DNA of 64,000 nucleotides from a virus: IMG/VR virus record IMGVR_UViG_3300027792_000010; one strand, given 5' to 3'. The position numbers and the translations under genes were made by a program. This document shows positions 24,567-52,336 of the stretch, piece by piece (the stretch's first letter is position 1; every line of letters starts with the position of its first letter). The notes under the pieces are model-generated. The model was not told the DNA's origin. It worked only from the letters and a program-made list of their open reading frames with translations, and searched no databases.

Positions 24567-25088
24567 TTATTGCCAACATTTTTCATAGTCTTTATTTATA
24601 CCAGAGATATATGCAAGTATATCATAAATATAGCTGTTAGGATTAATATATCTATTTACTTTTCTAAACTCTTTTTCGTCTAATCCTAAAAGTCTATTTA
24701 TGAATAAACCAACGGCACCACTTCTTGAAGTACCTGCGTCACAATGTACTACTAGTACACCTACATGTTCATCATTAAGTAACTTTACGAAATCTAGTAT
24801 CTTATGAGCATCTGTTTCATCAAACAAACGTAACCCAGAATCTAATTTTTTTGGGGTAATAGATTTTATTCTTTCAAACTGTTCTTTAGATATATCACCA
24901 AAACAAAGATTTAAAATGCTTTTGCAATTCATCCTATGCATGAGTTCTACTTTATCATCTGTAATTAGTTTCTCTGCAGGGGTGCTATATATAGAGATGA
25001 GCGCCCAACTTAGAGATGATATAGTCTCCTGATTCGTTATCACATCCGTAATAACTTTCCTCGGAAAAACACGTATATGCCTTATCAT
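24567..25088 (-). CDS. protein-tyrosine/dual-specificity phosphatase-like protein
   Basis: VVHCDAGTSRS (CX5R). Confidence 0.85.
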   Translation of the reverse strand: MIRHIRVFPRKVITDVITNQETISSLSWALISIYSTPAEKLITDDKVELMHRMNCKSILNLCFGDISKEQFERIKSITPKKLDSGLRLFDETDAHKILDFVKLLNDEHVGVLVVHCDAGTSRSGAVGLFINRLLGLDEKEFRKVNRYINPNSYIYDILAYISGINKDYEKCWQ

Positions 25089-25870
25089 ACTGTTTTTACT
25101 TTCACTTTATAGGTTTTGTAGAAATCTCTGGTGATATTATGAAACTCTTCCGGTAGTAATTCTACAGTTTTTTGAGCAATATCTTTAGGGATTTCTTTAT
25201 AGAAAGCCTGAGCTATACCTCCGGCAATACATGCCATAGTATCCGCATCGCCATTAAGTCTTATAGCTTTTTTGATCGCGTCTATAAAGGAATCGGACTC
25301 AAGAAAACAAATGATAGATTCAGGTACTGACCCCTGACACGTCGCATCGAATTTGTAGGTCGGTGCGATATCTACCAGAGTACGATTAAGGTCATATCCA
25401 AAACTTTTTGATATGACTCTCTTAATCTCTTCTTTGGATTTCCCAATGCGTGCCATATAAACTGCTAAAGCTGTAGCTTGAGCACCTTTGATACCTTCTG
25501 GATGACTATGAGTACACTCTGCGCTTTTTTTAGCCTCTTCTAAGACCTTCCTAGGGTTATCAAAAGCATACCCTATAGGACTTACCCTCATGGCAGAACC
25601 ATTGCCAAAACTATTAAAAGGGGCATTAGAAGAAGAATCTAACCAATCTTGAAACATCCCGCCATATCCCCGACCTGGGTATCTATTACCGAAGTCTTTG
25701 TAACACTCACCATAGCTCTTCCCCGTTAGGATGGCTGAGCAGGTAGCGAAAGACATTACAGAGTCATCCGTGTAATCAGTCCCATCTGCAAACAATTCAA
25801 AATCATATACTTCTGTTTTCTTCCATTCATATGCACTCCCGATCACGTCACCTATGCAGGCACCCAGCAT
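25085..25870 (-). CDS. ADP-ribosylglycohydrolase (DraG/ARH family)
   Basis: GACIGDVIG, YTDDS, GNGSAMRVSP, NGDADT; start moved to MLGAC. Confidence 0.92.
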   Translation of the reverse strand: MLGACIGDVIGSAYEWKKTEVYDFELFADGTDYTDDSVMSFATCSAILTGKSYGECYKDFGNRYPGRGYGGMFQDWLDSSSNAPFNSFGNGSAMRVSPIGYAFDNPRKVLEEAKKSAECTHSHPEGIKGAQATALAVYMARIGKSKEEIKRVISKSFGYDLNRTLVDIAPTYKFDATCQGSVPESIICFLESDSFIDAIKKAIRLNGDADTMACIAGGIAQAFYKEIPKDIAQKTVELLPEEFHNITRDFYKTYKVKVKTV

Positions 25871-26802
25871 GATATACCGCCTTTCACTCTTTCTTTTTCG
25901 TATCCCAACCATTCTTTCCACGATATCCAACCTTTATTTAGATATGTACGGCTAGGAAAAGAAGGTATAGTGATTGGTCTACTACCACTTTTACAAAAAC
26001 ATTCCCATTCGGTTTTACTTTGTATATTAAATTTTTTAATATATTCTTTAGCTTCTGAATAGGGCATAAAACCTGTTTTTAAGACTATTATACCTTTTAT
26101 TTTATAAAATTTATTATATTTTCTTAACAATTTTAAGCTACTATCTCTATACATGAAATCTCTTAATAGTATTGAATTATTGTTAGAAAACCTTGTGCTA
26201 TAATAAATGCTGTCTTTAGGTCTTGTATAGTCAAATAACTTTTCACCCTTTTTTCTAACTTTTATGTAAATAATACCGTGTATACCTTTTATGCTACTTT
26301 CTATTGCTTCTAATAATTTATATGCTAACTCTTTGCTCCCTGAAGTGAAATCTGTTTCAAGATTATTATTATCTTTTAGAATGCTCACGCTCCCATCTCC
26401 GTCAAAGTACCCTCTAATAAAGTCTGGTAAATATTCCTGAGGGACTGTTGGAAATCCAATATCTAAACTTTTTCTTTCTTTTCCTCCAAGATTTTTTATA
26501 TCTTCAATTATTTCTTTTGAGTAAATACATATAAAATAATTATTTTTACAAGTTTTCTTTATAGGATGATTAGATTCCATAACTTTTAAAATATTTTCTA
26601 ATATATATTTGTCATTTTTATGCTGGCTTATTCCAAAGCATTCTTTATCTATAAATCCATCGGCCCACCAAAATCCTAAAACATAGGCCATATCTTTAGT
26701 CCAAATTTTAAAAAAATCTTGATTAACGTTATATCTTCTTGCCCCCTGATTCCACTTATTTTTCCAACGTTCCAATTTTTCTGATTGTGCTTCTTTGCTC
26801 AT
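25852..26802 (-). CDS. LAGLIDADG homing-endonuclease-like protein with extra C-terminal domain
   Basis: YVLGFWWADG and FIRGYFDGDG motifs. Confidence 0.85.
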   Translation of the reverse strand: MSKEAQSEKLERWKNKWNQGARRYNVNQDFFKIWTKDMAYVLGFWWADGFIDKECFGISQHKNDKYILENILKVMESNHPIKKTCKNNYFICIYSKEIIEDIKNLGGKERKSLDIGFPTVPQEYLPDFIRGYFDGDGSVSILKDNNNLETDFTSGSKELAYKLLEAIESSIKGIHGIIYIKVRKKGEKLFDYTRPKDSIYYSTRFSNNNSILLRDFMYRDSSLKLLRKYNKFYKIKGIIVLKTGFMPYSEAKEYIKKFNIQSKTEWECFCKSGSRPITIPSFPSRTYLNKGWISWKEWLGYEKERVKGGISCWVPA

Positions 26803-31930: not shown

Positions 31931-33292
31931 CCGTTCTGAAAAACTTATAAAATCTTTGCAAGACTCATGTTTTCTTCCTGCTTCATAGAAACAGCTTCTT
32001 GACCTATACAAGCATCTTGAAGTCTTATACTTTCTCCACAGGCTTTAATTCCCGACGAACTATCGGTATTTTTAAGTTTAATTAATACATACTTTTCAAG
32101 ATTAATAGATGCATTTAAGTCTCTATCTATGACATTTCCACAATCACATATATAAATCCTATCTTCTAAAGTAAGGTCTTCTTTCAAACAACCACAAACA
32201 GAACACGTCTTACTTGAAGGAAAGAACCTATCTACTTTAATTATGGAACCTCCATACCAAGAGGTCTTATAGGTTAGTTGCCTTTTAATTTCATTAAAAG
32301 AAGCATCTCCTATAGCACCTGCAAGTTTATGATTTTTCATCATACCAGAGACGTTTAAATCTTCTAAAACGATGTATCTTGGTTTGGTTTTCGCCAAAAT
32401 ACTTGTCATCTTATGAAGAGTATCTTTTCTTTGACTACTAATTCTTTTATATATCTTTTGTACTTTTAATTTACTCTTTAATCTATTATTACTTGATCTT
32501 TTAGTTTCTTTATCAAACTTTTTACGAGCTAAATCCTTTTGAGCATGAGCTAACTTTTTCTTTGATTTTTTAAGATACTTAGGATTTTCAAATATTTGAC
32601 AATTAGAACATGTAGCTAATGTTTTAATGCCTACATCAACACCTAAAACAGATTCTATTTGGTTTACTGGTTCTGGTATATCTTGTTCTACTTGAACAGA
32701 TATATACCATCTATCAGCTTCTTTGGAGACTGTCATAGAGTTTATTTTAACATCTTTAGTTGTTATATAACCTTTTTCTTTAAGTTTTACATAACCGACT
32801 TTAGGAATATTGATTGTTGAATTAGTTATATAGAACCCAAAGGAAATCCTAAAAGAATCTTTGTCTTTATGTTTTGACTTGAACTTAGGGAAACCTACTT
32901 TTTTACCTTGTTTCAAACCTCTAAAAAAGTTTTTGAAAGCTGTATCTAAATCCCTTAATGCTTCTTGAGGAGCCATTTTGGATATATCATACATCCAATG
33001 ATAATCAGTTTTCTTCTTACTACATAAAATTTTATGTTGATCTATAGCAGTTAAGGTTTTCTTTTCTGACTTATAAAGTTCTATACGTTCATTTAATCCC
33101 CAATTATAAGCAAAACGAGCACATCCAACACTCTTTTCTAAAAGAGTACGTTGTTTATTATTAGGATTAAGTTCTACTTTATATGCTCTATTTATCTTCA
33201 TTTTCTTTATTCTTCTTAGTCATATGACTTCTTCTACCATAAATTTTAGCTGAATAACAAGACATAATAGTTAAGATATCTGTTAGATTCCC
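31931..33292 (-). mobile_element. IS607-family element carrying only tnpB (no tnpA)
   Basis: Left end GGGAATCTAACAG, right end TAAGTTTTTCAGAACGG, GG at both junctions. Confidence 0.75.
31945..33201 (-). CDS. tnpB: RNA-guided endonuclease TnpB
   Basis: RAYKVELNP HTH; RuvC D (GVDVG), E (VLEDL), D (DRDLNA) intact; zinc finger CSVC...CDC. Confidence 0.95.
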   Translation of the reverse strand: MKINRAYKVELNPNNKQRTLLEKSVGCARFAYNWGLNERIELYKSEKKTLTAIDQHKILCSKKKTDYHWMYDISKMAPQEALRDLDTAFKNFFRGLKQGKKVGFPKFKSKHKDKDSFRISFGFYITNSTINIPKVGYVKLKEKGYITTKDVKINSMTVSKEADRWYISVQVEQDIPEPVNQIESVLGVDVGIKTLATCSNCQIFENPKYLKKSKKKLAHAQKDLARKKFDKETKRSSNNRLKSKLKVQKIYKRISSQRKDTLHKMTSILAKTKPRYIVLEDLNVSGMMKNHKLAGAIGDASFNEIKRQLTYKTSWYGGSIIKVDRFFPSSKTCSVCGCLKEDLTLEDRIYICDCGNVIDRDLNASINLEKYVLIKLKNTDSSSGIKACGESIRLQDACIGQEAVSMKQEENMSLAKIL

Positions 33293-34452: not shown

Positions 34453-34537
34453 CTATATGTCTGTTTATTACTCTTAGCTAATCCTTAAAACTATATAATA
34501 ATAAACTTCTTATTGAGAGTTCTATATTAATAAGTTA

Positions 34538-34608
34538 TGCCCCTAATTGGTCTCGAACCAATGACTCCTGTTTTAGAGACAGTTGTTTTACCACTAAACT
34601 ATAAGGGC
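34538..34608 (-). tRNA. amber-suppressor tRNA (anticodon CUA)
   Basis: GCCCTTA/TAGGGGC acceptor, A73, arm (A)CTGT-CTCTAAA-ACAG(G). Confidence 0.85.
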
Positions 34609-34614
34609 ACATAA

Positions 34615-40482: not shown

Positions 40483-41424
40483 TTATTCAAAGTGAATACG
40501 TTTGATTGCATCTACAAACATACTTGATACATCGATTGTTTGAATGAACTCCTCTGAGTAATCTATTCCTGGTCTCCAAACTGTATTTGTAACATGTACT
40601 TTATTTATTGGGGATCTCTTCATATCCCATATAGCATCCTTAGTTAGTATTCCGTGTATAGCACAAGCATGAATTTCTATCGCTCCATTTGACTTAAGAA
40701 CTTCTGCAGCCTTTATCATGGACTTACCCGAGGCTATCTCGTCATCAATAATAATGCATATTCTACCTTTAACATTTCCAACTAGACTTGTAATTTGAGG
40801 ATTCTCCGTATCATCAACACGAATTTTACTCATGTATGCTACGGGAAGCTGACATAGCTCAGCGTACTCTGTAACCATTTTAGAGCTACCAGAGTCCAGG
40901 GCAACTAAAGTGGTCTTGTTGAAGGATACCTCTTTCTTAAGGTATTGATAGATTATCTCTTTCGGTACAAGATGATCTGTAGGAATCCTAAAAAATCCCT
41001 GAGTTTGCGGAGAATGTAAATTCATGAACATTGCACGGCTGGCACCTGCGGTTTGAAGAAGATCCGCCAGAAGACGAGCAGTGATAGATGTTCTGGACTC
41101 CCCCCGTTTGTCTGACCTGCAGTACGGATAATAAGGAAGAACGACTGTGATACGTCCGGCGCTTGCGTGCTTGAGAGTATCGATCATTATGAGCAGTTCC
41201 ATTATTCGTTCATTCTGATTAGGATAATTAGGCTGTATGATAAAGATATCATCACCGCGAACAGACTCTTCCACCTTAAATTTGATGTTGTCATTAGAAA
41301 ATATCAAAGAAGTTGTTTTCAATCTGGGAAGATAACTTTCTGTCACCAAATATTCTAACAATTTCGATTCAATCATATTATATAAGGGAAGTTGCTCACA
41401 TCCTGTCATGATGCGAAGTCTCAT
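40483..41424 (-). CDS. prs: ribose-phosphate pyrophosphokinase
   Basis: MELLIMIDTLKHASA, PYYPYCRSD, IIIDDEIASGKSM. Confidence 0.93.
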   Translation of the reverse strand: MRLRIMTGCEQLPLYNMIESKLLEYLVTESYLPRLKTTSLIFSNDNIKFKVEESVRGDDIFIIQPNYPNQNERIMELLIMIDTLKHASAGRITVVLPYYPYCRSDKRGESRTSITARLLADLLQTAGASRAMFMNLHSPQTQGFFRIPTDHLVPKEIIYQYLKKEVSFNKTTLVALDSGSSKMVTEYAELCQLPVAYMSKIRVDDTENPQITSLVGNVKGRICIIIDDEIASGKSMIKAAEVLKSNGAIEIHACAIHGILTKDAIWDMKRSPINKVHVTNTVWRPGIDYSEEFIQTIDVSSMFVDAIKRIHFE

Positions 41425-41438
41425 GCCTACCTCCTATT

Positions 41439-42410
41439 TCAATTAACTCTAAAAAGGTTGTCTCCTGATCCAGGCGAAACTTCACATCCTGAATTTTTTT
41501 CACTTGCACTATTAGACCGATTATTTGTTACATCAGTAAGCTTTTCTTCTGGTTTATTAGATTCAGTTTTCTTTTCATCATCTACATGGTTCTGTATACT
41601 GATCAGAATATCTTCTACTTCATAGACTATATTTTGAAACTTTGGAGTTCTTTTCAATTCCGCACTTCTATCACAGGGCAAATCAACGGTCATCTTTTGT
41701 ACAATCTTTCCTGGATTTGCCCTCATAAAGAATATTTCATCCCCGAGGTATACAGCCTCTGAAATGTCGTGCGTAACAAATATAATCGTTGTGCGTATCT
41801 TTGACCAAATTTCACATAACAAATCTTGCATTTTTAAGCGAGTATTCACATCTAGAGCGCCGAAAGGTTCATCCATCAGAAGTATCTCAGGTGCTGAAAC
41901 TAAGCTACGGGCAATAGCTACACGCTGAAGCTGACCACCAGACAATGTGGGGTATTTAGCATATTTACTTTCATGTCCCTCCAGACCTACTAACTTAATC
42001 ATCTCCATAGCTTTTTCATGACGTTCTTTTTTTGGTACCCCTTTGAACTTAAGCCCAAGGGCTACGTTGTCGAGCACACTAAGCCAGGGAAATGAACTAT
42101 ACTGCTGGAACACCATTCCTACTTTGATGCTCTTTTCGATAGTTTTTCCACTAATGAGCACTTCTCCCGACGTAGGTTTTTGCAATCCTGATATATATCT
42201 GAGTAGAGTAGATTTACCAGATCCTGATACGCCTAATATAACTACGAACTTGCCTTTTTCGGAGTTATCCTCTATAAGCAGGTTGAGATCTTGTATAATG
42301 CTGGCACTGCTACCATTATACCTCTGAGATATATCCTTAAGTTCTATAATATCGTGGGCATTTGTATTCGTAAAAATAACATTATCATTGTACATACTAT
42401 ACCTCTTCAT
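41439..42410 (-). CDS. ABC transporter ATP-binding protein (NitT/TauT type)
   Basis: GVSGSGKS, LSGGQLQR, LMDEPF, VTHD. Confidence 0.93.
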   Translation of the reverse strand: MKRYSMYNDNVIFTNTNAHDIIELKDISQRYNGSSASIIQDLNLLIEDNSEKGKFVVILGVSGSGKSTLLRYISGLQKPTSGEVLISGKTIEKSIKVGMVFQQYSSFPWLSVLDNVALGLKFKGVPKKERHEKAMEMIKLVGLEGHESKYAKYPTLSGGQLQRVAIARSLVSAPEILLMDEPFGALDVNTRLKMQDLLCEIWSKIRTTIIFVTHDISEAVYLGDEIFFMRANPGKIVQKMTVDLPCDRSAELKRTPKFQNIVYEVEDILISIQNHVDDEKKTESNKPEEKLTDVTNNRSNSASEKNSGCEVSPGSGDNLFRVN

Positions 42411-42648
42411 CGGTAGGGTATAAAAGTGTAAAAGTTTTAGCAGTTTTTTTAGCAGTTTTTAAAGCTATAAGAATTTTATCTACAGACTCTATTACTTGAA
42501 TTGTATCTCTATTTGTTAATATTGTCGTATACCCATGCCCCTCTGATATGTAGTCTATTTTATCTATAGGTATAATAACCCTTAATCCTTTATCTATTTT
42601 ACCTGTAATAAGTCTTGAGCAAATAAGAAAACCAGAATTTTTACCCAC
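42397..42648 (-). CDS. hypothetical protein (FlbD/LytTR-like fold possible)
   Basis: IPIDKIDYI...TTI...IQVIES pattern. Confidence 0.5.
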   Translation of the reverse strand: MGKNSGFLICSRLITGKIDKGLRVIIPIDKIDYISEGHGYTTILTNRDTIQVIESVDKILIALKTAKKTAKTFTLLYPTDEEV

Positions 42649-42659
42649 TTAGTCACCTC

Positions 42660-43469
42660 TCAAATATATTTGTAAGGGAATAGTTTTTTGTCCAACCACA
42701 TAAAGATCCTATCCTGCACAAACCCAATCAAAACTATCATGATCAGGACAGCAAACACTTTGTCGATACGACTCTGACGGGCAGCTGTATAGGCTAATGC
42801 CCCGATACCACCTGACCTATTTACTAGTTCAGCTACAATGATGTATGTCCAGGAAATCGCTACAAGCACTCTAATGTCATCTGATATTTTGGCGAATACT
42901 GAGGGAAAGAAAACACTGAAAATCATCTGCCACCTATTAGCTCCGAGAGTTTTAGCAGTTTGTTGATGAACAACTTCTACTTCATCTATCCTTTGAACAA
43001 CTACTGGAAGCATATAGACTATGATACCGAAAGCCAAGAACTGAACCTTCATATTAGTATCGATACCGAACCATGCAATAAAAACACCAACCACAGCGGT
43101 AAGCGGTATGAATCTGGAAGCACTGATATATCTACTGAAGAGACTACGGAAGAAAGGAAACAATCCGATAGGAAAACCTATCAGGACGGCTATTATTACT
43201 GCTTCTACATATCCTAAGATATTAAGTTTGATAGAAAACAGAGTATTTGTGAATATACTATCTTTAATATACAATTCTTTGAAAGAAGTTATTACCATCC
43301 ACGGCGAAGGAAGCAAGGACTCAGGTATGAGCTTGAGGGATGTTATGATACCCCATATACCCAACAGAACTACAAATCCTGCTATTTCGATAATAAGCAT
43401 TGTTTTCTTGGGGAGTGCTCCACGAATTTCAAACAGATTATCAAGATCTTTCATATAAGTATTCTCCAA
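42660..43469 (-). CDS. ABC transporter permease (NitT/TauT type)
   Basis: Multiple TM helices; AKTLGA EAA-like loop; IVAEL...GIG. Confidence 0.9.
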   Translation of the reverse strand: MENTYMKDLDNLFEIRGALPKKTMLIIEIAGFVVLLGIWGIITSLKLIPESLLPSPWMVITSFKELYIKDSIFTNTLFSIKLNILGYVEAVIIAVLIGFPIGLFPFFRSLFSRYISASRFIPLTAVVGVFIAWFGIDTNMKVQFLAFGIIVYMLPVVVQRIDEVEVVHQQTAKTLGANRWQMIFSVFFPSVFAKISDDIRVLVAISWTYIIVAELVNRSGGIGALAYTAARQSRIDKVFAVLIMIVLIGFVQDRIFMWLDKKLFPYKYI

Positions 43470-43758
43470 GGGCTCAAATTTTGTCTGATAAAGTAATTAC
43501 AGTTACCTCTGAACCTTTTTCTACCTCAGAAGAAACAGCCTGTCCATAATTATAATATTGAGTACCATACTTAGTAATTAAATTTCTCTTATGTTCTATT
43601 GTAGCAGAAGCATAAGATTCTTTTATAACTTCTTCCCCATCTATTGTGATTGAAACTTGTACTACTGACATTATTTACCTCAATTTTTTATAAGATATAC
43701 GGTGAGCTAAAGAAAAGCTCCCCAAGCAAAAGTGCATGGGGAGTTTCCAAGGTGGGAC

Positions 43759-45324
43759 TTACTCCCCGAGCAACTCAAACGCTGTATTACGATTCTGCGC
43801 TCGTCCATCCTCAGTATCATTGGTGGCAACAGGCTTATCAGGGCCATTACCTACAACAATGAACCTATTTTTGTCGAAACCCCATCGACTAGTGAGATAC
43901 CCTACAACTGATTTGGCACGGTTCAGGGAAAGAGTTTTATTCATGGTATAGTCACCTGTGTTATCTGTATTGCCTTCCACACGGATACGACACTTTGCAA
44001 AGCTCTTGGCTATATCTGCAAATTCCTTATCAATTTTGTAACGGCACTCATCACATAGTACGTAGGCACCAGTTTCGAAGTTTACGGTAACACGCTTAGT
44101 TGCAAATGCTTCCTTACTTGCTATTGCCGCAGTGGGCTTGGTGAAAGTAGCCGACGCTTCTGCAACTTGTTCTGGCCCGGTTAAGTTAAGGATACTTTTT
44201 AGAATTATTGTGCTAGACACGGTGCGCCATGATGGAACAGTAGACTGGTCGGGCAGTGATTCCTTGAATACTAAGGAAATCTGCGGGATGGCAGTCGCTG
44301 TTTTTTCGTATAAGTCTTCGCCCTTGATGCCATTATAATCACCATTGAGGTTGAAGAACTGAACATTGTCTCCGTAGGTGCAGAGACGGGCATTCAAGAT
44401 ATTCATGACTTCCTCTGGCTGATTAAATGCTGTAGACATTAGTTTCTGAGCAGAAGCGCGTACTGCATCAGAGCTATTGATTTCGGCAGCTGCTTTGAAC
44501 CAACCTTCGGCAAATTTTCTCAAATCATCCTGTCTAGTCAGAAGGACGGAATTTTTGACATAGAAAATATCAGCAATGGTATTGGACGCATCTTTTGTGC
44601 TTCGAAGGATTTTTGAACCTGCGACACTTTTGATACAATCCTGGTCATCAGGTGACCATACAACAGCGGCATCCACTTTACCTGCCTTGAAATAGGAGGC
44701 GGCATCCAAAGCTGTAGGCGCTTTGATTACTTCGATGTCACTATACTTCAGACCGCCTGCAGAGAGTACCCACAAGAGGAGTGTCTGAGAGGGAGTACCA
44801 AAAGCAACAGCAATGCGCTTACCCTTAAGGTCTTGAACATTATTGATACCAGAGGCTACGACGATGACATCACCACCACGGGACCAGTCGATCTGCATGA
44901 AGACTTTTGGTTCTAAATTAACTATGTTCGGGAAGAATGTTGATAGCACATCAGCGGTATTGCATACCACATCGTACTGATCGGCTTTCCAACCGTCGAG
45001 AATGTTCTGGAAGTCGTCATTAATACTGAACTCTACTTCCACACCATCCTGAGTGAATCGGGATGTCGAAGAGGGTTTCAGACCTCCATTGTAGTATACG
45101 CCAGGGGCGAATCCTACCCAGGTATTCAAGCATACCCGGAGTGCTTTGGACTTGCTGCCGCCAAACAGACCTTTGGACGGGGTTTCCGAAGCTGCTTTTG
45201 GTGCAGGTTTTGGAATCCAACCTTGTTTGTTAGCGAACTGGTAGCCGAAGAAACCACCGCCTATTACAAGGGCAATAATGAGAATCTTCGCAAACGGGGT
45301 AAGTTGAGGGGCTTTGTTAGCCAT
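43759..45324 (-). CDS. ABC substrate-binding protein (NMT1/THI5-like) fused to an OmpA/Pal-like C-terminal domain
   Basis: N-terminal TM; DWSRGGD; IRVEGNTD...LSLNRAKSV...GNGPDKP...NRNT. Confidence 0.85.
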   Translation of the reverse strand: MANKAPQLTPFAKILIIALVIGGGFFGYQFANKQGWIPKPAPKAASETPSKGLFGGSKSKALRVCLNTWVGFAPGVYYNGGLKPSSTSRFTQDGVEVEFSINDDFQNILDGWKADQYDVVCNTADVLSTFFPNIVNLEPKVFMQIDWSRGGDVIVVASGINNVQDLKGKRIAVAFGTPSQTLLLWVLSAGGLKYSDIEVIKAPTALDAASYFKAGKVDAAVVWSPDDQDCIKSVAGSKILRSTKDASNTIADIFYVKNSVLLTRQDDLRKFAEGWFKAAAEINSSDAVRASAQKLMSTAFNQPEEVMNILNARLCTYGDNVQFFNLNGDYNGIKGEDLYEKTATAIPQISLVFKESLPDQSTVPSWRTVSSTIILKSILNLTGPEQVAEASATFTKPTAAIASKEAFATKRVTVNFETGAYVLCDECRYKIDKEFADIAKSFAKCRIRVEGNTDNTGDYTMNKTLSLNRAKSVVGYLTSRWGFDKNRFIVVGNGPDKPVATNDTEDGRAQNRNTAFELLGE

Positions 45325-45354
45325 AAGTAAAACTCCTTAATAGATTGTGATTAG

Positions 45355-46380
45355 TTATTTGAATAATGTATTATACTGATTTATATGATCTGTATAGCTT
45401 CCAGCTTGTGCCTCTGTATCAAGATTAATAACTTCTTTATCGTCATTGGCCTTATTGATGAGATTGCTCTTATCATCCCCTAGGATAAAGGAATCAGCAT
45501 TCTTTTCCCATTCCTCAAGCATTTTAAGACCCTTCTCCTCAAATACACCATTCTGTAGGTCAATACCTTCCATGAAGTTCTTTGAGACATCCATAAATCT
45601 TTCCATCTCACCAATCTTATTGCTGAGATCAGTTGCCATGAATTCTAAAGCTTGCTCAAATATAGCTCTCTGGTCAGCATTACCATTGACTACGCTCATT
45701 GCAGACTTGATAGCCTTGTGGCTCTGTCGTATGACATTCCACTCGACCTCTTTTTGTTTGATCTGGTCTTCGGTGTCCTCATAGAGGATACCACAGTTTT
45801 CGTACATTTTACTCAACACTCGATAGATGACTTCCATCTTCGTATATAGCTTTTTGTACGTTACGTTGGAGTCACTCATACGACCAGCTTTTCGAGTCTT
45901 AAGAACCATGACGTTCTTCTGACCTCCCTTTTGCGCACGAGCTGCCAGATCAAGATTGTCTTTGATTTCCTTCTCGTTTGCTTCTATAATACTTTGAAGC
46001 TTTCGCATCTGCCCTTTTAGTAGTCCGATCTGCTCATTCATATTCTGAAGATTATCGTATAGCTGTCGAAGATAAGTCTTCAGGATAGAGATAGGATCTA
46101 GTTCAATGATCATCCCAGTCATCTTTCGAATGATTGTCTTGTAGAGATACGAGACAGCGGTACGGAACTTTGGGTCCATAACCAGAACTGCGATACCACC
46201 AATAACTCCAAGAAGTAGCAATAGGTGGAGAGTATTCTGCGCCAAGATGAGAAGAAACGGGAGTGCTTTTGCAAAAGCGTACACACCGCCGACGGCTAGT
46301 AGGGCAGCGATTACTGCACCTACCTTACCTTCTGGCTTTTGCCAAAATGATTTTAGATTCTGAGCATTAACCGGGTCCAT
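45355..46380 (-). CDS. membrane-anchored coiled-coil protein (PspA/IM30-like)
   Basis: Two N-terminal TM helices then a long heptad region. Confidence 0.65.
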   Translation of the reverse strand: MDPVNAQNLKSFWQKPEGKVGAVIAALLAVGGVYAFAKALPFLLILAQNTLHLLLLLGVIGGIAVLVMDPKFRTAVSYLYKTIIRKMTGMIIELDPISILKTYLRQLYDNLQNMNEQIGLLKGQMRKLQSIIEANEKEIKDNLDLAARAQKGGQKNVMVLKTRKAGRMSDSNVTYKKLYTKMEVIYRVLSKMYENCGILYEDTEDQIKQKEVEWNVIRQSHKAIKSAMSVVNGNADQRAIFEQALEFMATDLSNKIGEMERFMDVSKNFMEGIDLQNGVFEEKGLKMLEEWEKNADSFILGDDKSNLINKANDDKEVINLDTEAQAGSYTDHINQYNTLFK

Positions 46381-46389
46381 CCCTACCTC

Positions 46390-47064
46390 CTATTTTGTCC
46401 CTTGTGGGGTTAGATATGTTTTAATTTTGTCAATATCTGTGGTGATTTTATCTCTGAATGCTTTAAGCATGTTACTGAAGTTCACAGCTGTTCTTTCTAT
46501 TTTGGCTTTGTTATCATTAATTTCAGAAGAGAGCTTAGTCTTATTTTGCTGTAACGTATTAATCTGATTAGAGAGAGCCTGGATCTGACTGGCTACTTTT
46601 GCGATCTCACCATCAATACCATTAAGCTCAGTTTCTTTATCAGTTACATTATATTTCAACTGTTGGGCGGCAGCATCAGAAAACTTCTTATCCTCCTCAT
46701 CTAATACCTTAAGATATGCCTTGGCACTATTTATCAAGGTACCTACTGTAACACCCATTACAGCTGCCGTACTGCCTACGACTTGAAATCGAACACCCTC
46801 TGCTGGAACAGCTACCTTCTGTGCCTCTACTGCATTGATGAACTTCAGATAATCAAACCCAGGGGCGCTCGCACTTTCCATTGCGGTAGCCAGATGGATT
46901 CGAATACTCTCACTATCTTTATCACTCACCATAACAGGGGCTGAAGGTACCGCTGAGACTTGTGATAGTTGTGACGGTTGTACCGCTTTGACAGGCTCTG
47001 CTACTTGGGGACCTTTTTCCTCATCCCCACCTGTCACAAATAGCCCTTTCAGATTGAAAGCCAT
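46390..47064 (-). CDS. coiled-coil hypothetical protein, first gene of the transporter operon
   Basis: AAGGAG RBS at MAFNL; promoter at ~47093. Confidence 0.75.
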   Translation of the reverse strand: MAFNLKGLFVTGGDEEKGPQVAEPVKAVQPSQLSQVSAVPSAPVMVSDKDSESIRIHLATAMESASAPGFDYLKFINAVEAQKVAVPAEGVRFQVVGSTAAVMGVTVGTLINSAKAYLKVLDEEDKKFSDAAAQQLKYNVTDKETELNGIDGEIAKVASQIQALSNQINTLQQNKTKLSSEINDNKAKIERTAVNFSNMLKAFRDKITTDIDKIKTYLTPQGTK

Positions 47065-47116
47065 AAGTATCTCCTTTTTAATATTCAAAATAATATACTT
47101 TTTTGAAAATCTATTA

Positions 47117-47479
47117 TCAAATATTTTTGTTATCATCAGCAGGCATAGTCAGGTCAAGCATATCCAATATACGAAAAAGGGATTCTTTTTCCTGTTCTTT
47201 CTCTTTTGAGGTCTTTATATCAAAAGCTGGAGGAACATAGGACGTAGTAGTATTTGCTTCTGATACCCCAAACATTTCTGTAAGGGCTTCTCTACCCCGA
47301 ATAATGGTTGGATGCTGGTTGGCCTCTTTAATTTCAGAAAGAAGCTCTTCTTTGGTGACCATACCTTTTTGTAGAAGTATCTTCTGAATTGCATAATTAG
47401 TAGCCATTACAGAAGTAACTCTTTTGATCGTGGCTTCCATAAATTTCAAAAGAACATTACTTTCAGAACTGGAGAGCAT
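47117..47479 (-). CDS. hypothetical protein
   Basis: ORF track; GAGG RBS. Confidence 0.65.
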   Translation of the reverse strand: MLSSSESNVLLKFMEATIKRVTSVMATNYAIQKILLQKGMVTKEELLSEIKEANQHPTIIRGREALTEMFGVSEANTTTSYVPPAFDIKTSKEKEQEKESLFRILDMLDLTMPADDNKNI

Positions 47480-47702
47480 AATTACCTCAACATTTTTTTA
47501 TAATTGTTATTCAATAGTGGCTCTTTAGCATAGAAGATTTTGTACTCTAAGATGCCACCGCCAACTACTAACCGAGTCGTGTGAAACTGCTTCGACTCAA
47601 CTTCATTTATAGCGTAGTACTGCATTGCAAAATATCCTTATAATAAGGTTCTCGAAGACTCTCGCAAAAACTGGTATATAACTTTTGACAAATGTGAGCC
47701 GT

Positions 47703-48014
47703 CTACACCAGCACTTCACCGCATTTTGGGCAGTGATTATAACTCGAAGGCCACTCAACCCCACAGCACTCTGGTATAAATGAGGCAATAGGCTTATTAG
47801 ATGCTATAACCGAATCTTTGCCATTTAAGGTAGATAAAGAGTATCCATCTTTTTTACCTTGCTCGCCCCTTGTTAAATGCCATAAAACTCGCTGAGCAGT
47901 AATATCTAATAAAACAGTCATGTGATAGTCAAAATCGTCAGAAACATTATCTTTTGCGAGCAAAACAAATTCGTTAATTGTTTTTATCGCTTTAAAAAGC
48001 TTATTAAAATTCAT
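47703..48014 (-). CDS. cassette-like hypothetical protein with C-terminal CxxC
   Basis: ORF track; ends in a degenerate attC-like fold. Confidence 0.6.
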   Translation of the reverse strand: MNFNKLFKAIKTINEFVLLAKDNVSDDFDYHMTVLLDITAQRVLWHLTRGEQGKKDGYSLSTLNGKDSVIASNKPIASFIPECCGVEWPSSYNHCPKCGEVLV

Positions 48015-48498
48015 AAATCCCCAATTTAAAAGTGGTTATTTCGTGGCTGTTATGGATGGTGCTCACTATTTCCCTTGCTTTTTATTAATGCAATCTTCTC
48101 TTTAAATGCGTCATAGGTATGTCCTGATACACCACCGTGTAATGATAGATAACCTGCTAAAAGTTCAAAGTTAGATATCTCTGATAAAGTCCAGCCCCTA
48201 ACTTTTATATATTTAAACAACATAGAAAAGAAATATCTATAATCTTTTTTAATTTCACGTACCCACCACGGTATCTTATTTTTTCTTAATGCAGACTTCT
48301 ATAGCACGAGGCTGTTGTGCATTGTTTGGATGAATTTCCGTAATTTTAGAGATGCAAGATGATTTATAGCACCATACGTTGTCTGGACATTTTATACCAT
48401 GCTGCTCCCCACAATAACTATAACGAAATGGACACTCTTTCATAAGCACCTCCTATTAAATAAAAACTCAAAAAATTATGTCATGTACTGATAATTAC

Positions 48499-48678
48499 TT
48501 AAGAATAAGTACAAAATACATAATCCTTAATGTAAAGCCGTTCCGAGCTGCGGCTGTTGTGCTCGGCCTGTTGTTCGGTGTGGAGCACAGGTTCTGCCAG
48601 TTTAACGCATCCCGGCTCCTTTAGGCACCGATGCCCTGGACTATAAAGTTTGCCACAATAAATACATGGATGCTGCAT
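48499..48678 (-). CDS. cassette-like small protein MQHPCIYC...
   Basis: AGGAGG RBS; follows an attC-like site. Confidence 0.6.
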   Translation of the reverse strand: MQHPCIYCGKLYSPGHRCLKEPGCVKLAEPVLHTEQQAEHNSRSSERLYIKDYVFCTYS

Positions 48679-48724
48679 TTTACCTCCTGCCGCGCCTATC
48701 TGTAAAGACTCAGCGCAGCATTTC

Positions 48725-48816
48725 TTACAACGTCTCTGCAACTGGTGCTGGAAACGCCTATAATAGAAATCAATCCTTAGTGTCTTGCGTTTCTGGCATC
48801 CCTTGCTGTGTTGGCT
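48725..48816 (-). repeat. attC-like site
   Basis: GCCAAC...AAACGC/GCGTTT...GTTGTAA. Confidence 0.6.
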
Positions 48817-48841
48817 GCTGTCTGCCGGTTCTCCGCAATTT

Positions 48842-49222
48842 TCAGGCGCGGCATCTTCCGTAATCCACATGATGTATTGATTTCTCTTTAGTTGGGCCTA
48901 CGTCATACGTACATGATACGCACCCAAATAAAAAATTACCAGATTTTCCGTGAAGAGCGTCTTCAAGAGTTAACATTTTAGATGGTGGAAACTTTTTATC
49001 TATGGAACTATCACTCCACGAGAGTCCCACTTCTATAAGTTCCCTTATAGGGCAATCCTGTAAAGCCTGACGTGCTTTTCCAAATCCATTAGTTTTTGAT
49101 TTATTAATATTTAGTGTTACGCATAAAAGATTGGGCCATCTCCTCATAATATGAGAATCCTCTATAGAATACCCAGCATCCTTGATAATCTTTAATACTG
49201 TATGTCTGGATTTTAATTTCAT
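48842..49222 (-). CDS. cassette-like hypothetical protein
   Basis: Start moved to MKLKSRH after AAGGA. Confidence 0.6.
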   Translation of the reverse strand: MKLKSRHTVLKIIKDAGYSIEDSHIMRRWPNLLCVTLNINKSKTNGFGKARQALQDCPIRELIEVGLSWSDSSIDKKFPPSKMLTLEDALHGKSGNFLFGCVSCTYDVGPTKEKSIHHVDYGRCRA

Positions 49223-49271
49223 GGTTTCCTTTCTTGCCGCGCCCCACCAGTTCCAAAAACAGGCAGATTTC

Positions 49272-49332
49272 AGCCAACGTGTTTCCGCATTGTGCAGTGA
49301 GCTTTGGCATTGCATAATGCGGCTGTTGTAAG
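49272..49332 (-). repeat. attC-like site
   Basis: TTACAAC-AG-CCGCATT...AATGCGG-AAACAC-GTTGGCT. Confidence 0.7.
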
Positions 49333-49342
49333 ATGTAAATTT

Positions 49343-49597
49343 TTATTCATTAGTGCCTTGCGGCGCGTCTTCGTCTGTAATAATCATATGCACCTTTGGT
49401 TCTCCAATAACGGTTATTTTCCTCTGGTGGTGCTTAATTCCACCAATAACGCTTTCTGCATTGATAAATCGCATCTCTGTTTTGAAATCATCCAACGCTT
49501 GCTTGTGTACCTGAGATACCGACGTGCTACCATCCCACACAGAATCGCCGGGAATTTCTAATTCAACAGTTACTGTTGCACGGACTCTTGTTTTCAT
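49343..49597 (-). CDS. cassette-like hypothetical protein
   Basis: ORF track; bounded by attC-like sites. Confidence 0.65.
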   Translation of the reverse strand: MKTRVRATVTVELEIPGDSVWDGSTSVSQVHKQALDDFKTEMRFINAESVIGGIKHHQRKITVIGEPKVHMIITDEDAPQGTNE

Positions 49598-49637
49598 CTT
49601 AGCGCCGCCTATAATTTAAGGTTTAAAAATTTATTTC

Positions 49638-49776
49638 TTACAACGTTTACTAAACGGCTGATAGTTTTGCGTCGATCTGCTCCAAAAGCCCCTTGACACT
49701 ACCCATATCATCAGCACACGCACACTGTTTGGTACGCTGAATAAGCAGCAAAATTTCAGCCTTTAGCTGTTGTAGG
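49638..49776 (-). repeat. attC-like site overlapping an ORF C-terminus
   Basis: CTACAAC-AG-CTAAA-GGCTGA...TCAGCC-G-TTTAG-TAAAC-GTTGTAA with an extrahelical G. Confidence 0.7.
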
Positions 49777-49895
49777 CTGTTACCGTTTTCTTCCACTGAT
49801 TTTATGGCGGCATCCCATATATTTTGAGACCCCGGTTGAAAACTGTGTTTTGCGTACCATTCGCTACGGAACTCATCCAATGTTTTGGCCGCCAT
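49650..49895 (-). CDS. cassette-like hypothetical protein
   Basis: GGAGG RBS at MAAKT. Confidence 0.65.
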   Translation of the reverse strand: MAAKTLDEFRSEWYAKHSFQPGSQNIWDAAIKSVEENGNSLQQLKAEILLLIQRTKQCACADDMGSVKGLLEQIDAKLSAV

Positions 49896-49924
49896 GTTAT
49901 ACCTCCAGAAAAAACGGTAATTGA

Positions 49925-50061
49925 CTACAACGGTTGACAAATGGCAGTAGTTTGCCCTACCACCAAAAATCGCAATACTCACAATGTTTAGACCCATTAC
50001 GCATATCCTTACCTTCACCAGAGCAATTAGGGCAAATTATTGCCTTTGTTTGTTGTTGGCT
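49925..50061 (-). repeat. attC-like site overlapping an ORF C-terminus
   Basis: GCCAAC...GGCA..TTTGCCCTA/TAGGGCAAA..TGCC...GTTGTAG. Confidence 0.65.
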
Positions 50062-50187
50062 GTTAAAATTTTCTTCCAATGGTTTTAAAGGCGAAGGCTT
50101 ACAATTCCTTTCCTCTTCAAAATCTGGCATTGGCGAATTTCTAAATGTTTCTTTAAGACGCTTTTTTATCTCTTCTGAGCCTGACAT
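49957..50187 (-). CDS. cassette-like small protein with CxxC pairs
   Basis: CPNC...CEYC; AAGGA RBS. Confidence 0.6.
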   Translation of the reverse strand: MSGSEEIKKRLKETFRNSPMPDFEEERNCKPSPLKPLEENFNSQQQTKAIICPNCSGEGKDMRNGSKHCEYCDFWW

Positions 50188-50227
50188 ATAATATCCTTTC
50201 AAAATTTTAATGGCCTACAACTATCTA

Positions 50228-50467
50228 TTATACGACAGTACCTTGTGTAACTCTTTGATTTTCTTTTAGATAAAATTTTTGAAATTTTCCTGTTATTCTA
50301 CTTAAAGGATAGCCGTCTTGTATTAAAGCTCTAATTACAGCATATCTAATATATTTAGAACGTGAAATTTTTAATTTTCTGCCTTGATGCTCACACCCAT
50401 AAGCTAAAATAGGCTCCAGATAAATCTTATAATCACACCGTATTTTATCAGATAATTTTGCTATCAT
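50228..50467 (-). CDS. ribbon-helix-helix-like protein
   Basis: ISRSKYIRYAV pattern; promoter upstream. Confidence 0.55.
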   Translation of the reverse strand: MIAKLSDKIRCDYKIYLEPILAYGCEHQGRKLKISRSKYIRYAVIRALIQDGYPLSRITGKFQKFYLKENQRVTQGTVV

Positions 50468-51049: not shown

Positions 51050-52336
51050 TTATTTAGTGAATGGAAATATAGAAGATAGTGCCGATCTCCTGTTCAAGGA
51101 GGACGGACTATGGTTATTATCGTCAAGATCGTAGTGATCATCACTTGGAATTGTTATCTTTTTGCCCCACGGAACAGAACAGTATTTATTATCAATCAGT
51201 ATCCAAATAACTTCTTTTACACCTATAGGATACTCTACAGTATCCCCCTGACCATCTGTAAGCATAATCAAAGCATTGTATCTACCTTTCACAGCCACAT
51301 CCATAGTAGGTTTGAAAGAAGTCCCACCTCTTCCATGCATCTCAAATTTGATAGCTTTATGCTCAAAAGGTTCAGGCCCGTATGATAAGGCAGCATCATG
51401 CATAACAAGATCTACGGCATAGTGCTCTCTGATAGCATTTACCTCTGCAAGTATTTGAGAAAGCTGTACGTCACTTACCGAGGCTGAGGTATCTACACTT
51501 ACTAGTACCCTATCCATATATTGAGGGCGCATGCCTGGAAAAGGCCATCCATACCGTCTATCAAAAGTCTTTAGATATGGGGTGTTTTTTGCAGATACCA
51601 TCATACCAAGGTACTGTCTTAGTTGATTCTGCCATTGTACTTTAGACCTCTGAGCAGCTCTTATGATAGACTGGCAGTTAGAGGGGACTTTTCCCCATAC
51701 TGCTTCATCCTTCATTAGCTTCTGTACAAGAGACCTTATCTCTGCTTGCGCAGCAGGGCATTCATCCCAATTATCGTGGGTATCAAAACTACCACCCTTT
51801 CCATCTCCGTACCCTATACCAATCTGTGGAAACTGATCATCTTTCAATAGCTTGAAATAGTACTCTAATGGCATATTTTCAGGGAATGGCTTCTTTTTTC
51901 CTAAAGAATCAACTTCATCTAAGTGATAATCGGAAGGTCGTATCCCTTTAAACTTACCCTCAGGCATTTTTCTATAGGTACCATCTGTGAGAATGGAGTT
52001 GATAGCGAGATCCCCCGCTATGTTATGCTTACGTCTACGTGTGACCTCTTCTGACTTTCTATGGGTGCAATGCCCCAGTACAACATGGTAGGTTTCATGT
52101 GTTAGGATATAGCGTACATAAGCGTCATTAAGATTGGAAAGTTCCTTTATAAATTCTGGGTTATAGGTAAGGACGATCTTATTACTGCCCTTTTCTACAT
52201 ATACCCCCATAGTATCTATTTTCGTTGACGGTACTTTCTCTAACCGAAGAAGTATCCGATGTACGAAAGGATCTGATGTAACGAGGAACTGGAGGTTGTA
52301 ATCCAGTATGTCTTCTCCTGTTATACCCTTCTTCAT
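51050..52336 (-). CDS. metallopeptidase-like (HExxH) plus VWA-like domain protein (DUF2201 type)
   Basis: HETYH, AGDLAINS, VDTSASV MIDAS, GRGGTSF, LTDG. Confidence 0.88.
   Translation of the reverse strand: MKKGITGEDILDYNLQFLVTSDPFVHRILLRLEKVPSTKIDTMGVYVEKGSNKIVLTYNPEFIKELSNLNDAYVRYILTHETYHVVLGHCTHRKSEEVTRRRKHNIAGDLAINSILTDGTYRKMPEGKFKGIRPSDYHLDEVDSLGKKKPFPENMPLEYYFKLLKDDQFPQIGIGYGDGKGGSFDTHDNWDECPAAQAEIRSLVQKLMKDEAVWGKVPSNCQSIIRAAQRSKVQWQNQLRQYLGMMVSAKNTPYLKTFDRRYGWPFPGMRPQYMDRVLVSVDTSASVSDVQLSQILAEVNAIREHYAVDLVMHDAALSYGPEPFEHKAIKFEMHGRGGTSFKPTMDVAVKGRYNALIMLTDGQGDTVEYPIGVKEVIWILIDNKYCSVPWGKKITIPSDDHYDLDDNNHSPSSLNRRSALSSIFPFTK

Follow-up and report, generated by a model that had tools for sequence, protein, structure and literature searches.

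A single integrase family defines integrons, which are seen as devices of bacteria and, more recently, of archaea as well. Elsewhere, the CTX phage attP and the pdif modules of Acinetobacter plasmids rely on a Xer-family recombinase whose substrate is either a folded single strand or short inverted sites flanking modules, with an enzyme that can come in trans. Within integrons proper, the canonical attC site leaves a central spacer of 5–6 nt unpaired on each arm and is more stable on its bottom strand by 2.12 kcal/mol (PMC5027507), carries extrahelical bases 6 bp apart on its R''-L'' arm (PMC2727003, PMC5027507), and is recombined by enzymes with an insert present in all known integron integrases (PMC9668308). 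The nearest precedents in phages are pieces of integrons and attC clusters (PMC9892861) and promoter-stem-loop (PeSL) cassettes (PMC2839356), and no description of the phage system reported here was found in the literature searched. The locus in question occupies 47.7–50.2 kb of a 64,000-nucleotide stretch of viral DNA (IMG/VR record IMGVR_UViG_3300027792_000010; hereafter the window), itself part of a 202-kb contig. An initial annotation, made from the letters alone, had read it as a cassette array akin to clusters of attC sites lacking integron integrases (CALINs), shuffled by a recombinase acting in trans. The analysis below indicates that it is probably a genuine array of cassettes belonging to an integron-like system, with a site geometry and a type of recombinase that both depart from the canonical; 48.7–50.2 kb looks active by its sequence, and decayed cassettes follow down to 47.7 kb. 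Complementary cassette ends, a strand signature, arrays in other phages, an exchange between two related loci and a recombinase adjoining arrays all bear out the earlier reading, which requires correction on two counts: the sites are not canonical attC, and the recombinase linked to them, which is Xer-like, has no integron-integrase insert.

All genes of the array lie on the − strand, and its sites are read here in gene sense, with coordinates running from the 7-mer that ends in AAC to the 7-mer that starts with GTT. The four complete sites (A to D, Table 1) agree within 3 nt with those proposed in the initial annotation and have a common layout of AAC, a 2-nt spacer, an imperfect stem, a loop, a return stem, a 5–6-nt spacer and GTT; folding puts the cores at the base of the stem. 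The asymmetry of the spacers, read by eye, is seen in all four. Two sites had been described as embedded in the coding tails of their open reading frames (ORFs), and sites C and D do enclose the last 35–42 codons of theirs. The extrahelical G claimed at the same time was found in site C only, the bulged base across the wider family being G or A on the gene-sense strand. When the 64 kb was searched on either strand (128 kb in all) for this geometry at a score of at least 11, only B, C and D were returned, with zero matches on the + strand; site A is 86% identical to positions 706–807 of contig L015, itself a scoring site. The heptamer GGCTGTT has seven copies on the window's + strand, six of them within 47–51 kb.

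Sites of this kind are not confined to the window. Twelve IMG/VR contigs of 8–467 kb contain a 21-base motif taken from site C, for which 185,579 genomes of bacteria and archaea give no exact match; the viral contigs that bear the motif carry co-oriented arrays of up to 18 sites. One of these (G001) is a complete, terminally redundant phage genome of 213 kb whose array is concentrated in a single 8-kb locus, with 16 sites at a score of at least 10 and 18 at a score of 9; of its score-10 matches, 16 of the 24 on the + strand fall within those 8 kb and the other 16 (both strands) are scattered over the rest. This phage and the window have almost no genes in common, yet they carry a junction identical over 29 nt. 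Across unrelated phages the junction arms are 90–100% conserved and the interiors differ. From such relatives, 82 sites were collected with a geometry scanner of our own, ranging from 52 to 161 nt including the 7-mers and all bearing AAC and GTT, as do the window's four. The scanner fixed the AAC-side spacer at 2 nt and accepted only 5 or 6 nt on the GTT side, such that the distribution obtained for the latter (5 nt in 59 sites, 6 nt in 23) is not an independent test. Pairing between the two cores of one site was not demanded of it, because the bases on the GTT side belong to the next cassette, and demanding it wrongly rejects sites A and B. The commonest cores are CTACAAC, GTACAAC and AACCAAC with GTTGTAG, GTTGTAC and GTTGGTT, and a minority fit the canonical form (GTCTAAC with GTTAGAC). 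DNA methylase genes flank the arrays of L011 and L015. On the related contig L014 a tRNA-Gln(UUG) gene (675–748) stands directly after a site of type C, and tRNA genes may therefore travel as cassettes.

The ends of a cassette are complementary to each other and not to the ends of its neighbours. In 36 of 45 adjacent pairs of sites, the four bases after GTT and the four ahead of the next site's AAC are reverse complements, where 10,000 permutations gave a mean of 4.9 and a maximum of 14; over all 60 pairs of sites no more than 1.3 kb apart, the match is exact in 39, and the same site's AAC matches in two. Complementarity extends over 20–30 nt (mean score 16.7 versus 7.0 in the control) and holds a conserved A.A and A.C pair at positions 10–11, and the four core-adjacent bases vary between cassettes whilst remaining complementary within each. 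The two ends of one cassette thus belong together, as they do in integron cassettes with a G|TT crossover. Within the window itself, the best and longest inverted repeats of the region recovered by an inverted-repeat search do not lie inside the sites; they connect each cassette's start with the sequence immediately ahead of its own AAC (50201–50221 with 50052–50072 in cassette 1, 21 nt at 86%; 49911–49931 with 49769–49789 in cassette 2; 49617–49644 with 49325–49352 in cassette 3, 28 nt at 82%; 49235–49278 with 48810–48853 in cassette 4). The units of sites C and D align in three conserved islands only, with a period of ~287 nt; these islands are the junction elements, their arm sequences change in step, and the interiors are unrelated.

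The sites have been selected to fold on the strand opposite to the genes. Among the stem mismatches of the 82 sites, 124 are A.C on the gene strand, equivalent to G.T on the other, against 20 gene-strand G.T, and folding with DNA parameters favours the opposite strand by 1.87 kcal/mol, with 66 of the 82 sites in agreement (p = 7e-10); this is the outcome of the bottom-strand folding that the initial annotation had proposed as a check. Together, the wobble bias and the strand stability exclude an mRNA structure. In 53 of the 82 sites, bulged bases occupy stem positions 6 and 13 on the GTT-side arm (gene-sense strand); at 6 bp their spacing is that of canonical attC, and the arm is the opposite one, given genes on the top strand. 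The mirrored bulges may have to do with the absence of the integrase insert, the part by which classical integrases contact these bases. Pairing reaches 97.5% over the five outer stem pairs, each of which has changed on both sides, though as the sites had been selected for pairing this covariation is not independent evidence; the count was confined to five pairs because MAFFT gave bulged stems a register different from that of unbulged ones. In 64 of the 82 sites an ORF runs in and terminates inside, often 5–11 nt before GTT, and since most ORFs read into their sites in this way, the site loop may double as an exchangeable C-terminal piece of protein. A TAG inside the site is the stop codon of many cassette ORFs in relatives.

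Comparison among relatives points to exchange at these junctions. Homologues of ORF C are mosaics that break at the site core: five have its C-terminal half (corresponding to the site loop) joined to unrelated N-terminal halves, and six have its N-terminal half with different loops. The contigs that carry these homologues are built in the same way as the window's array. Order among relatives, another comparison proposed at the outset, does differ at the level of sites, as the site types of the window stand in another order in L015. Between the loci L132 and L019, whose flanks are 76–81% identical, homology breaks off 12 nt past the stop codon of a recombinase gene, precisely at the first GTT, and is found again from the DNA polymerase gene on, with wholly unrelated sequence in between; the cassette content of related phages thus differs from the first GTT onward. 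Taken with gene orientation and the strand signature, this breakpoint suggests a crossover on the GTT side, with the strand opposite to the genes as the folded substrate.

The recombinase gene at these loci provides a candidate enzyme. L019 lies in a true phage of 47.6 kb (G006) with portal, DNA polymerase and helicase genes, in which a five-site array follows the gene for a tyrosine recombinase of 268 aa (annotated at 266 aa in the protein database), with 5 nt between the end of the gene and the first GTTG. Co-oriented Xer-like genes end 5–30 nt before the first core at L019, L132, L049, L050 and L051, the products being 83% identical to that of L019 for L132 and 54%, 53% and 45% identical among the other three; these array-adjacent recombinases measure 266–289 aa and are found in phages of ~45–50 kb. 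The L019 type aligns collinearly with archaeal XerA (4a8e, E = 6e-29), with IntI4 (2a3v) in two pieces with ~50 residues skipped, and array-linked recombinases score 101–126 bits on TIGR02249 against a cut-off of 265; the enzyme is Xer-like by sequence and has no counterpart of the insert that defines integron integrases. The recombinase stop codon is followed by TATAAT-N5-GTTGT at L019, L050 and L051 (TATAGT at L049), and the window's array opens with the same TATAAT, 5 nt and GTTGT. No exact copy of its 31-nt entry sequence was found in IMG/VR. In G001 the opening of the array is instead a short hairpin, resembling a terminator, between ACAAC and GTTGT (L017 3798–3849). Divergently oriented arrays accompany two further Xer-like clades (L091, L054) and follow the same rule of complementary ends, and some relatives use canonical cores (GCCTAAC with GTTAGGC). 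In 658 kb around 80 Xer/integrase-like genes of viral contigs, sites were found at six loci (arrays at L052 and L091, single matches at four) and at none of the other 74; a 373-aa recombinase of G010, ~1.4 kb after an array, belongs to another family.

Other candidates for a common enzyme fared poorly. No tyrosine or serine recombinase, Y1 transposase or type IA topoisomerase was found in the five array-bearing records G001–G005, and a type IA topoisomerase, although present in the window, was discarded on that ground; TnpB was likewise rejected, with matches in one of the five. A 79-aa ORF before the window's array was considered as a recombinase remnant and set aside, as tblastn with 33 members of the clade finds nothing in the window. 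This null result, together with the screen of window ORFs of at least 150 aa, agrees with the original remark that no integrase is in view.

Four complete cassettes and a truncated fifth make up the active-looking and adjoining part of the array (Table 1). The half-site at 48510–48560 matches, at 90% identity, the 5' half of a site that is complete in L025 (142–191), and it has neither the 3' arm nor the GTT; by this homology it is a truncated site, and the array decays toward 47.7 kb. Such decay had been claimed in the initial annotation, and indeed the ORFs downstream keep 5' half-sites only, which were recovered close to where it had put them (48552–48574, 48310–48318 and 48045–48053); the latter two, in the decayed tail, have no pairing partner that could be found, and a degenerate site proposed for 47685–47800 could not be confirmed. 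In total, ~10 small − strand ORFs stand between a VWA/metallopeptidase gene (51050–52336) and a host-like PspA/ABC-transporter block (<47.1 kb). None of the small array ORFs reaches Pfam's own cut-off and PHROGs yields one weak match only, with ORF D giving a sub-threshold match to a DnaJ-type zinc knuckle.

Table 1. Sites, cassettes and array entry in the window.
Feature	Position	Strand	Description
Array entry (attI-like position)	50215..50232	−	TATAAT box, 5 nt, first GTTG core
Cassette 1	49931..50220	−	Leader, ribosome-binding site, ORF D, site D
ORF D	49957-50187	−	76 aa, CxxCxGxG zinc knuckle
Site D	49925-50058	−	Complete; scanner score at least 11
Cassette 2	49644..49930	−	ORF C (49650-49895, 81 aa) and site C
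Site C	49638-49775	−	Complete; scanner score at least 11; loop encodes C-terminal half of ORF C
Cassette 3	49278..49643	−	ORF B (49343-49597, 84 aa) and short site B
Site B	49272-49331	−	Complete, short; scanner score at least 11
Cassette 4	48731..49277	−	ORF A (48842-49222, 126 aa) and site A
Site A	48725-48816	−	Complete; interrupted stem; fold z = -3.2; missed by the scanner
Truncated fifth cassette	48499..48730	−	Normal 5' end, ORF z (48499-48676), 5' half-site 48510-48560
Decayed tail	47703..48449	−	ORFs y (48276-48449), x (48050-48223), w (47703-48014)

Several observations weigh against reading the locus as an integron-like cassette array. The 82-site family was gathered with a scanner that itself selects for paired stems. 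End complementarity, taken alone, fits a crossover at either core, and both the reactive strand and the side of the crossover are read from indirect evidence; for classical integrases, moreover, the bulge arm directs which strand recombines (PMC2727003), and the arm seen here would by that analogy direct recombination to the other strand. Among window ORFs of at least 150 aa there is no recombinase-family match besides one TnpB, and G001 has no Pfam match for tyrosine or serine recombinases, Y1 transposases, type IA topoisomerases or TnpB, such that its 18-site array demonstrates that arrays persist without a linked enzyme. No excision product was seen for the window's phage, and as the window is matched at 100% identity by three contigs from other samples, there is no variation, and hence no polymorphism in cassette order, to read from them. 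The lack of a recombinase in the window and in G001 also speaks for an explanation without any dedicated enzyme, in which the ~30-nt junctions are short homologies for general recombination between co-infecting phages, in the manner of the documented PeSL shuffling (PMC2839356, PMC4122927). Conserved junction arms around differing interiors in unrelated phages, and mosaic proteins with breakpoints at the junction, fit such a process. We nonetheless consider it unlikely, given that the four core-adjacent bases vary between cassettes and are complementary within each, that the left breakpoint between L132 and L019 falls exactly at GTT, that strand-specific selection of wobbles and regular bulges play no role in homologous recombination, and that in five phages the arrays directly adjoin a recombinase gene.

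That the array is an ordinary fragment of a bacterial integron, an integrase-less attC cluster acquired from the host and recombined by a host integron integrase, is improbable. Its AAC...GTT hairpins, complementary cassette ends and bottom-strand stability match those of integrons, canonical cores do occur in some relatives, and phage attC clusters recombined by IntI1 have already been published (PMC9892861); against this must be set a motif present on 12 viral contigs and without exact match in prokaryote genomes, spacers of 2 versus 5–6 nt in place of 5–6 nt on both arms, bulges on the opposite arm, recombinases lacking the insert, and a cargo that is phage-like in its ORFans, flanking methylase genes and neighbouring tRNA gene. 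Finally, the hairpins might be mRNA signals (terminators, processing sites or elements of translational control) or the remains of a decayed tandem duplication of one small gene, as could be argued from the periodic alignment of units C and D and from the overlap of some stems with ribosome-binding sites. This we disfavour as very improbable indeed: the mismatches in the sense of the mRNA are predominantly A.C, which are unpaired in RNA, there is no Rfam family match in 47–51 kb and terminator-like matches are near the shuffled expectation, the unit interiors are unrelated, and the same junctions recur in phages with almost no genes in common.

If the locus is read as an integron-like cassette array, a cassette, in gene sense, would start just after the G of a GTTG core, carry its own ribosome-binding site and small ORF, and end in an imperfect hairpin of 50–160 nt comprising the AAC 7-mer, 2 nt, a stem, a loop, a return stem bearing one or two bulged bases at a spacing of 6 bp, 5–6 nt and G. 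Excision and insertion of such cassettes would be the work of a tyrosine recombinase with the folded single strand as its substrate and a crossover in GTT, as in integrons, and the candidate for this enzyme is the small Xer-like recombinase adjoining the arrays of ~45–50-kb phages. Such a recombinase may act on the window's own array; in a giant phage it could come in trans from a co-infecting phage, from the other two-thirds of the genome, or from the host. Whether phages by these means own an integron analogue in general, with a small Xer-like recombinase and mirrored folded sites, cassettes circulating among unrelated phages of 45 to >200 kb, and the recombinase-less arrays of giant phages serviced in trans, is a proposition on which we are evenly divided. 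If it is true, recombination at translated sites would also swap C-terminal protein modules. Its confirmation would explain the assembly and exchange of ORFan-rich variable regions in large phages, add a second, independently testable structure-specific recombination system, and provide recombination sites that double as coding sequence.

The surroundings of the array are those of a huge phage, to judge from 27 tRNA genes, a G+C content of ~37% and nearly all genes on the − strand. The tRNA genes include a suppressor with a CUA anticodon (34537–34609, −); when TAG is read as sense, the ORFs 45355–46380 and 46390–47136 become one frame of 593 aa, and the array is essentially unchanged. A block that resembles an operon of bacteria (40483–47136, −) encodes a 341-aa PspA-like protein, an NMT1/OmpA protein, an ABC permease and ATPase, and a phosphoribosyl pyrophosphate synthetase, and the closest relatives of this block, in Saprospiraceae and other Bacteroidota, hint at the host. 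The lone TnpB of the window (31945–33201, −; OrfB_IS605, a Cas12f-like TNB domain and a helix-turn-helix domain) is accompanied by no Y1 transposase match among window ORFs of at least 150 aa, the size to which that screen was limited. A LAGLIDADG homing-endonuclease ORF (25852–26802, −) overlaps the end of an ADP-ribosylglycohydrolase gene (25085–25930). Contigs L006, L007 and L008, from the same phage in other samples, break near the repeats of the array (at window positions 50284, 49678/48688 and 50227/49238 respectively), which may reflect branching of the assembly graph at repeated or variable junctions. Searches for close relatives with flanking proteins returned only distant or very short contigs, and Megablast and blastn found no match among GenBank phages.

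Set beside the systems described previously, the array has partial counterparts in each. With the PeSL cassettes of T4-type phages (PMC2839356, PMC4122927) it has in common small ORFan genes in the hyperplastic regions of large phages and conserved structured motifs that mark points of exchange. Those motifs, however, combine promoter and terminator, are thought to act through homology, and come without AAC/GTT cores, cassette-specific complementarity of ends, folding of the antisense strand or a linked recombinase. CTX attP and pdif employ host XerC/D and dif-like sites of 28 bp, in contrast to a phage-encoded recombinase, long AAC/GTT hairpins and long co-oriented arrays. Integrons and CALINs (Qi et al. 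2023, PMC9892861) differ from the phage arrays in their main cores (RYYYAAC and GTTRRRY against NNNCAAC and GTTGNNN); the phage sites pair a 2-nt with a 5–6-nt spacer, bear their bulges on the GTT-side arm of the gene strand, possess an extra outer stem of 13–23 bp with a conserved mismatch, and are translated through by most cassette ORFs, and the recombinase linked to them has 266–289 aa without the integron-integrase insert, on what have so far been viral contigs only. The resemblances run just as deep: co-oriented small cassettes ending in an imperfect AAC/GTT hairpin of ~50–160 nt, an inverted repeat whose length (52–161 nt including the 7-mers) is close to the 57–141 bp of canonical attC; first bases that complement the cassette's own inverse core; a strand opposite to the genes that folds better by ~2 kcal/mol; two bulges 6 bp apart; and arrays with or without an adjacent tyrosine recombinase. 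Earlier reported cases of integrons in phages look like captured bacterial pieces, whereas here the same logic seems to be native to the phage.

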